Sequence record: PV648359
Origin: Escherichia phage LF82-1
Length of the DNA stretch: 64,000 nt
Strand: one strand, 5' to 3'
Shown one piece after another: positions 37,413 to 37,689 of the stretch. A program made the translations under genes and the position numbers. Numbering within the stretch: the stretch's first letter is position 1; every line of letters begins with the position of its first letter. The notes beneath the pieces are model-generated. The model did no database searches. It was not told where the DNA came from and was given only the letters and a program-made list of their open reading frames with translations.

Positions 37413-37456
37413 GCTAATTTCCTCAATTGATTAATGTTTTTGTAATCCATGAGAGC

Positions 37457-37486
37457 ATTATACTCTGCTCTCAAGAGTTTGTACAA
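37457..37486 (-). promoter_or_regulatory. T4-type early promoter upstream of ndd
   Basis: TTGTAC, 18 nt, TATAAT; -10 sits in loop of inverted repeat tgagagca/tgctctca. Confidence 0.5.
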
Positions 37487-37488
37487 TT

Positions 37489-37689
37489 TTATTCGGTTAT
37501 ATCAGAACGTTCAAAAAGCTCTTCAACAGTTAAACATTCAGTGTCATCTTCAATAAAGAATCGAGTCCAACACGTTGGGGCGATACAGTTATGAGTTTGT
37601 CCGGCGATAGAAGCTACACGAATAAGCTGCTGACCATTATTCAGAACAAATTTTTCACCAATTTCAACATCTTTAAAAAGCTTAGCCAT
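37489..37689 (-). CDS. hypothetical protein (ndd.x)
   Basis: 66-aa ORF with own promoter. Confidence 0.4.
   Translation of the reverse strand: MAKLFKDVEIGEKFVLNNGQQLIRVASIAGQTHNCIAPTCWTRFFIEDDTECLTVEELFERSDITE

Follow-up and report, generated by a model that had tools for sequence, protein, structure and literature searches.

Hairpins overlapping many early promoters of a T4-like Mosigvirus phage belong to cassettes of the published PeSL kind

The window analyzed here is a stretch of 64,000 nucleotides from Escherichia phage LF82-1 (PV648359). Positions 1-18500 and 36500-39500 were 100% identical to Escherichia phages LF82-2 and LF82-3 (PV648360.1 and PV660447.1), in whose records the window position equals the record position minus 32000. 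An exact match of the whole 64-kb string was not found in the reassembled LF82-2 genome, and a few differences probably exist. The phage is a T4-like myovirus with close relatives in Mosigvirus. In the regions considered, almost all genes lie on the minus strand; therefore, the early promoters were read on that strand, and every promoter and hairpin given below is on it. The LF82-2 genome was scanned with a PWM built from the -35 region and the extended -10 element only, with the arms of the repeats left outside the model. The scan returned 51 early promoters, all on the minus strand, i.e., the gene strand. The promoter at 37462 was added by hand, giving 28 promoters in the window and 52 in the later genome-wide analyses. 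A simple promoter scan ranked 37485-37457, 37746-37718 and 38258-38230 among its four top sites, each with 10 of 12 matches.

The promoter cassettes consist of an A-rich UP region, a -35 element (GTTTACA), a TG-extended -10 element, a leader of ~22 nt, a Shine-Dalgarno (SD) sequence and an ATG, with the stop codon of the upstream gene at the 5' end. At the scanned sites the -35 and -10 hexamers were sigma70-like and spaced by 16-18 bp. The 25 nt upstream of the promoters contained 72% A+T, compared with 62% in the genome, and A alone made up 41% versus 32%. The consensus of 36 promoters with a 17-bp spacer was ...aaAaAat.GTTTACAa.....tagga.taTG.TAt.ATa.tccTAtcaA..., which is palindromic in itself. 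From the normal spacing, we infer that +1 lies at the A of CCTATC, in agreement with the preference for C at -3 to -1 in RB69 early promoters (PMC1524935); the ATG follows this putative +1 at a nearly fixed distance of 20-24 nt. In many early promoters, e.g., at 17705-17713 and 10236-10244 of the window, the upstream stop codon abuts the -35 element (gTAG-TTTACA). Intergenic regions with such an abutting stop codon measure ~65 nt and are promoter cassette throughout.

The initial annotation had described inverted repeats bracketing the -10 element at many early promoters and listed seven of them. All seven were present, at slightly offset coordinates, and we sorted the hairpins into three types by position. 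Type I hairpins have their 5' arm in the spacer (~-29 to -14) and use all or part of the TG-extended -10 element as the loop; the 3' arm starts between -12 and -7 and ends between -1 and +7, mostly at +1 to +3. The hairpin at 37446..37476 is of this type (predicted fold -13.9 kcal/mol, z -3.75). Its perfect 8-bp repeat (37450-37457/37466-37473, TGAGAGCA/TGCTCTCA) encloses an 8-nt loop containing most of the -10 element of a sigma70-type early promoter at 37457..37485, which comprises the -35 TGTACA (37485-37480), a 17-bp spacer and the -10 TATAAT (37462-37457). Transcription would start near 37450, and an ndd-like gene is annotated downstream. The perfect repeat, here bounded as 37450-37473, was absent from the repeat-search listing, probably through the filter on runs of short units (GAGAG), and is plainly in the sequence.

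Two further listed hairpins lie nearby. At 37709..37736, the repeat at 37711-37734 (TAGGATTA/TAATCCTA) is lengthened by G-U pairs, the -35 occupies 37746-37741 and the -10 is TATAGT (37723-37718); the fold has -13.7 kcal/mol (z -5.7), and the antisense strand reaches only -7.3. At 38222..38247, the repeat at 38223-38246 (TAGGACTA/TAGTCCTA) accompanies a -10 TATAGT at 38235-38230 (-13.2 kcal/mol, z -4.1) and differs from the 37711 copy by one compensatory change from a T-A to a C-G pair. The remaining listed type I sites are 1590..1624, with an 11-bp perfect stem (TTGGTACAGGT/ACCTGTACCAA) whose 3' arm extends to ~+7 (-10 TATTAT at 1608-1603; -18.2 kcal/mol, z -5.1); 17250..17280, with a 10-bp stem (ACAGGGTAAT/ATTACCCTGT) that grows to 14 pairs with G-U and carries the -10 TACTAT (17263-17258) within its 3' arm (-19.1 kcal/mol, z -4.9); and 46854..46873, with a 7-bp stem (GGTCTATG/TATAGACC) around or including the -10 TACTAT at 46864-46859 (-9.5 kcal/mol, z -4.5).

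Three type I hairpins had not been listed before. The one at 5489..5518 has 13 pairs, three of them G-U, and a -10 TACTAT at 5504-5499; its fold is -16.9 kcal/mol in sense and -8.1 in antisense. At 7612..7642, AGGAGCA/TGCTCCT (7617-7638) accompanies the -10 TATAAT at 7628-7623 (-12.2 kcal/mol, z -2.8); this site is paralogous to the 37450 copy, from which two compensatory pair changes set it apart. At 17673..17700, GATAGGGCTAT/GTAGTCCTATC with G-U pairs accompanies the -10 TATAGT at 17687-17682, and the fold is -16.0 kcal/mol in sense and -8.9 in antisense (z -6.9). Predicted folds of type I covered -9.5 to -19.1 kcal/mol, and their z-scores lay between -2.8 and -6.9.

Type II hairpins of 5-8 bp lie wholly inside the -35/-10 spacer, usually with an AGGA loop. 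They were found at 9034..9051 (AACACCA-AGGA-TGGTGTT, with the AGGA loop), at 10217..10235 (TACCACAA-gga-TTGTGGTA, ending within the -10 TACAAT) and at 48985..48998 (AACCA-AGGA-TGGTT, with the promoter -10 at 48980-48975). The spacer hairpins at 9034-9051, 10217-10235 and 48985-48998 have the SD-like AGGA loop in common (CACCA-AGGA-TGGTG and similar). T4 and A6-6 both retain the spacer hairpin at 10218, which relative to A6-6 shows a compensatory T-A to A-T double change. In the orthologue of 10206-10241 in T4 and A6-6, a MotA-box-like ATGCTT replaces the -35 element, and the site appears to be a middle promoter. The loop region of the T4 orthologue of the 10218 hairpin reads GGAG, which is the RegB cleavage motif. 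A specific link between hairpin promoters and GGAG SD sequences, which are RegB targets, was considered by an informal inspection of SD motifs by eye, and no obvious link was seen.

The assertion that the arrangement occurs at many early promoters stood as far as recurrence is concerned and had to be narrowed in extent, to roughly one third of the early promoters. With G-U allowed, 9 of the 28 window promoters had a straddling stem of 7 or more pairs across the -10, against a background of 4.2% (P = 1.4e-6), and 7 of 28 had a perfect Watson-Crick stem of at least 7 bp, against 1.7% (binomial P = 4e-7). The nine straddling stems (7-14 bp) are those of the six listed type I sites and of the additional hexamers at 5504, 7628 and 17687. 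When spacers were swapped among the 51 promoters, the summed best-stem length fell from 327 to 246.6 +/- 8.3 (maximum 278 in 1000 permutations) and the number of stems of at least 7 fell from 17 to a mean of 4.0. These tests bear out the view that the recurrence exceeds chance. A sample from IMG/VR, collected with the pattern GTTTACA-N16/17-TAYWRT-N6-ATCAA in which the arms were left free, gave 124 distinct promoter-pattern sites with excess pairing at z ~6.5-7.5. Rfam covariance models gave no match at the gathering threshold across the window.

The arms are highly diverse in sequence (GGTACAGGT, AGGGTAAT, GAGAGCA, AGGAGCA, TAGGATTA, TAGGACTA, GGTCTAT and GGTGGAGTT), and paralogues differ by compensatory changes, as in TAGGATTA/TAATCCTA versus TAGGACTA/TAGTCCTA and GAGAGCA/TGCTCTC versus AGGAGCA/TGCTCCT. 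In a fixed-register alignment of the 52 promoters, 58.4% of the cells were paired, compared with 31-50% in slid registers, and double-sided changes numbered 47 against 30.8 expected (reached in 1 of 500 shuffles). The signal of this single-register test is diluted, as registers vary and the consensus is itself palindromic; the any-register permutation is more informative. Absence of the repeats from related phages had been named as an outcome that would speak against them, and we found the stems kept in T4, A6-6 and AlbertHofmann, where orthologues maintain them through A-U to G-U and double changes. The T4 orthologues of the 1608, 5504 and 17263 promoters retain hairpins of -15 to -16 kcal/mol, with A-U and G-U interconverted in the stems. 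The 1590..1624 stem is also conserved in A6-6 and AlbertHofmann. Both T4 and A6-6 conserve the 17250..17280 hairpin, whereas AlbertHofmann has another hairpin cassette in its place. In AlbertHofmann, which is ~95% identical, wobble-preserving changes occur at 37723 and 47444. Chance, or the inheritance of copies of one palindromic ancestral promoter, could be invoked, given that much of the pairing stems from the consensus: 56.2% of the cells remained paired after the 3' letters had been shuffled inside each alignment column, compared with the 58.4% observed. However, the background and permutation tests, the several distinct arm families and the compensatory changes in both paralogues and orthologues make this hardly credible. 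Pairing, and not sequence, is conserved at these T-even early promoters.

We compared the two strands. The mean minimum free energy was -7.5 kcal/mol for the sense strand and -6.0 for the antisense strand, and the sense strand was lower at 37 of 51 promoters (P = 5e-4), a bias larger than the -0.27 kcal/mol of the genomic background (P = 0.003). The stems contained 23 G-U wobbles compared with 8 A-C equivalents. In the IMG/VR sample, the strand bias was weak, with an excess of 82 for G-U compared with 64 for A-C. This modest sense bias favours RNA, or non-template single-stranded DNA, over a symmetric duplex site; single-stranded DNA stays compatible because the non-template strand has the sequence of the RNA.

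The repeats could instead act in the DNA, by binding a dimeric protein or by extruding as a cruciform or hairpin, and thereby modulate or shut off early promoters. Their centres lie near -12, a large subfamily has the common consensus TAGGAcTAT...ATAGTCCTA, and reviews describe the mechanism of early-promoter shut-off as unknown (PMC3014915, PMC2988021), all of which would suit such an element. However, a hairpin at a long intergenic gap lies outside the promoter altogether, and the G-U pairs leave the antisense strand far less stable (-16.0 versus -8.9 and -16.9 versus -8.1 kcal/mol at the sites given above). At least eight unrelated arm sequences preserve complementarity rather than sequence, and a sequence-specific DNA-binding site, which the initial annotation had allowed for, is unlikely for this reason. 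Stems of 7-13 bp also count as short for cruciform extrusion. By analogy, the hairpin promoters of phage N4 come to mind, in which extruded DNA is recognized by the virion RNA polymerase of the phage. As here, the inverted repeat of the N4 early promoters has its centre near -12, whereas the sites studied here are ordinary duplex sigma70 promoters with an RNA-like pairing bias of the sense strand. Taken together, we regard a DNA-level element as very unlikely.

We then considered the RNA. Transcripts reading through from upstream had been proposed to fold a hairpin across the promoter, and such hairpins are indeed predicted, with -9.5 to -23.9 kcal/mol. The accompanying proposal, that read-through and locally initiated transcripts would differ in leader structure and exposure of the ribosome-binding site (RBS), held at 47417-47461, as the sole listed site, at 53500 and at a few other sites in the genome, and not at the typical type I hairpin. 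The former sites form type III, in which an anti-SD directly after the -35 is complementary to the downstream SD. At 47417..47461, the anti-SD TTCTCCTCTGGTT forms the 5' arm of a 13-bp stem and begins immediately behind the -35; the loop comprises the -10 (47444-47439) and the start site. The SD (AGAGGAGA) in the 3' arm belongs to the gene with its ATG at 47412-47410. The predicted fold is -23.9 kcal/mol in the read-through RNA and 0 in the own leader, and the predicted unpaired probability of the SD is 0.80 in the own transcript and 0.00 in read-through. A weaker pair at 53474..53514 combines CCCTCC in the spacer (53514-53509) with the SD GGAGG (53478-53474) around a -10 TATGAT (53500-53495); its translation-initiation region has a predicted unpaired probability of 0.47 in the own transcript and 0.02 in read-through. 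Type III also occurs in several genome copies with compensatory differences, e.g., TCTCCTCTGGTT versus TCTCCTCTAGTT.

Accessibility was assessed as the predicted unpairing from the SD to the start codon in RNA starting at +1 compared with RNA starting 70 nt upstream. The translation-initiation region was less accessible by >0.2 in read-through RNA at 12 of 49 promoters, and the reverse was seen once. At most type I promoters, own and read-through values were equal (0.77/0.77, 0.55/0.55, 0.74/0.74 and 0.63/0.63). The own transcript of a type I promoter would carry almost none of the 3' arm because this arm occupies ~-7 to +1/+3. Only at 47417-47461, at 53474-53514 and at a few genome sites was the SD predicted to pair in read-through RNA but to be accessible in the own RNA; the hairpins bracketing the -10 do not sequester the SD. 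A switch in RBS exposure, in which the hairpin gives read-through and local RNAs different leaders, is thus doubtful as a general rule. It is true of 47417-47461 and is predicted at 53500 and at the genome promoters 133576, 129323 and 115147; the 12-to-1 asymmetry points the same way, and T4 has similar anti-SD/SD pairs. Against its generality, the -10-bracketing hairpins have a 3' arm that terminates between -1 and +7 (+1 to +3 in most cases), and accessibility is the same at 147906, 141015, 128873, 49687, 49263, 33608 and 143590 (genome numbering). This analysis separates a minority of true SD-masking hairpins from a majority unable to affect the leader.

The type III sites recall the translational-occlusion hairpins with an internal promoter that are known from the T4 genes e, soc, 49 and I-TevI. 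At 47417-47461 and ~53500, read-through RNA would likewise sequester the SD, and RNA from the internal promoter lacks the 5' arm. In the classical T4 cases the promoters are late or middle and translation is delayed, whereas here the internal promoter is early, and most hairpins of this phage miss the SD. A related reference, on mobE, is listed in PMC3014915. In this minority variant, an anti-SD in the spacer together with the downstream SD would confine translation to transcripts from the local promoter.

We examined how the genes are packed around the hairpins. [quoted passage not shown] Of 49 intergenic regions that contain a promoter, 36 had a best single hairpin of -9 kcal/mol or lower between the stop codon and the ATG; the mean was -13.3 kcal/mol compared with -7.7 in shuffles (P = 3e-8). 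The -10 was spanned by all 24 strong hairpins in short gaps and by none of the 12 in long gaps (Fisher P = 8e-10), a result that for short gaps is partly forced by geometry. In the long gaps, 10 of the 12 strong hairpins lay upstream of -30, several of them as UUCG-loop terminators. Strong hairpins were similarly frequent in the two classes (24 of 35 short gaps and 12 of 14 long gaps), and about one third of the short-gap promoters had none.

No U-tract followed the embedded hairpins of the 18 structured promoters, whose tails were A-rich, e.g., CAAAACAAA. Since a canonical intrinsic terminator joins a G/C-rich hairpin directly to a U-tract, the embedded hairpins are not canonical intrinsic terminators by sequence. 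A canonical terminator within 120 nt upstream was found at 0 of the 18 structured promoters and at 6 of the 34 others (P = 0.08, a trend); this complementarity fits a substitute role for the embedded hairpins and is not significant. The terminator detector had been relaxed for this comparison, as its first, stricter version missed known UUCG terminators.

G/C-rich stems with a UUCG tetraloop of the classical T4 type lie on the minus strand (cgaa on the plus strand) at 1172-1189, 2112-2131, 18187-18204, 35204-35221, 43686-43703, 55034-55055, 60220-60241 and 61977-61996. Those at 2112-2131, 18187-18204 and 35204-35221 stand 29-38 nt upstream of early promoters that have no embedded hairpin. Stable intercistronic C(UUCG)G hairpins of T4 were reportedly described by Tuerk et al. 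in 1988. Like these hairpins and intrinsic terminators, the structures found here form a stable hairpin directly after a stop codon, and their long-gap equivalent in this genome is a UUCG-loop terminator; the promoter-embedded hairpins differ in having neither U-tract nor tetraloop.

The arrangement is an already published one. Arbiol et al. (2010; PMC2839356) described promoter-early stem-loops (PeSLs) in RB49 and phi1 as an AT-rich region, a sigma70 promoter, an SD and an ATG together with a stem-loop, which lay most commonly between -35 and -10 or overlapped the -10 and was drawn with G-T pairs. They proposed a role as terminator or attenuator and a shuffling of cassettes, found that one G/C-rich stem-loop of RB49 lowered read-through in a lacZ assay, and reported PeSL mini-circles. 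Comeau et al. (2014; PMC4122927) extended PeSLs to T4/PST, with AGNA-loop-TCNT stems, and to nt-1/KVP40. The list of 57 RB69 early promoters by Nolan et al. (2006; PMC1524935) does not note repeats, and Hinton (2010; PMC2988021) refers to additional, unexplained consensus regions of T4 early promoters.

The cassettes studied here share with PeSLs the repeated intergenic occurrence, the AT-rich upstream region, sigma70-type -35 and -10 elements, the SD, the ATG and the stem-loop, as well as G-T (G-U) stem pairs and several positional subclasses, and they may share a link to cassette exchange. The stem-loop is predicted to be stable, at -9.5 to -23.9 kcal/mol, and takes several positions, here our three types. 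The AGNA...TCNT stems of T4/PST match the tAGGA...TCCTa found here, whereas RB49 PeSLs have G4...C4 stems, one of them a terminator, and the stems of this phage are A/U-rich without a U-tract. Our finding is therefore a rediscovery of this kind in Mosigvirus, a lineage not specifically analyzed in the PeSL papers, and it places a Mosigvirus genome within the published pattern. To the published description, the present analysis adds the explanation by packing, the bias towards the sense strand and the division into three types.

We consider it fairly probable that these are PeSL-type cassettes in which the selected feature is a stable intercistronic hairpin on the sense strand, that its overlap with the promoter results from packing, and that it serves as a 3' boundary or attenuator. 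The hairpin would form in RNA reading through from an upstream early promoter, just past the upstream stop codon. Where the stop codon abuts the -35, the intergenic space of ~65 nt would be all promoter, so that the hairpin must overlap it. Only the spacer (~-29 to -14) and the segment between -10 and +1 would vary freely enough to hold arms, and the constrained -10 ends in the loop because these two segments alone can hold them. Packing thus gives a simple reason for a -10 in the loop, as an intercistronic hairpin would have no other place. With a longer gap, the hairpin would be placed ahead of the promoter, frequently as a UUCG-loop terminator. In either position it would delimit the upstream cistron at its 3' end by pausing or attenuating read-through transcription and/or, once the RNA has been cleaved in the A-rich leader or at the SD, by blocking 3'-exonucleases, and would thereby insulate each cassette. 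Pausing or attenuation and/or protection of upstream 3' ends are the most likely roles. We found no usable study in the literature that maps start sites or 3' ends of T4.

We give a very small chance to the idea that the hairpins lacking a U-tract are the cis element of an undescribed control on early transcription units, acting through factor-dependent termination or processing or through a sensing of structure related to shut-off. If this were true, termination or processing might occur exactly at the start site of the next promoter, or a structure-sensing step might contribute to the shut-off of T4-type early promoters.

On the reading that we prefer, in which the hairpin is an intercistronic boundary element, the conserved cassettes of ~45 bp may in addition supply homology for cassette exchange. 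Conversely, the repeats might mainly be recombination substrates of mobile PeSL cassettes. The stem-loop would then have no role in expression and would be targeted or generated by cassette exchange or by templated quasi-palindrome correction. The different hairpin cassette of AlbertHofmann at the position orthologous to 17263 and the PeSL mini-circles (PMC2839356) would suit this proposal. In addition, two of the five homology breakpoints against AlbertHofmann fall at promoter cassettes (521 and 17687), a small sample and anecdotal. However, homology by itself does not call for arms that pair within one molecule, the imperfect stems, maintained by G-U pairs, speak against templated perfecting, and orthologous stems persist across genera. 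We therefore think it quite unlikely that recombination is their main function.

At 17250-17286, the hairpin promoter of the AGGGTAAT type is replaced in AlbertHofmann by a cassette of the TAGGGCTAT type, and the flanking segment at 15958-17645 is only ~71% identical or cannot be aligned; judged from the alignment, the difference looks like an exchange of promoter cassettes. Homology boundaries in the ndd-denB region were also considered as recombination junctions by BLAST, and they mostly coincided with start codons, which reflects coding conservation and is uninformative about recombination. A homing endonuclease gene at 11854-12495, between nrdA and nrdB, is absent from AlbertHofmann and explains one homology gap. 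Finally, at four IMG/VR loci from other T4-like contigs (L007, L064, L095 and L115), the repeat flanks the -35 and not the -10, e.g., CGGTG-tttacaatta-CACCG and AGGAACAG-tttaca-CACTGTTCCT, which corresponds to another published PeSL subclass.
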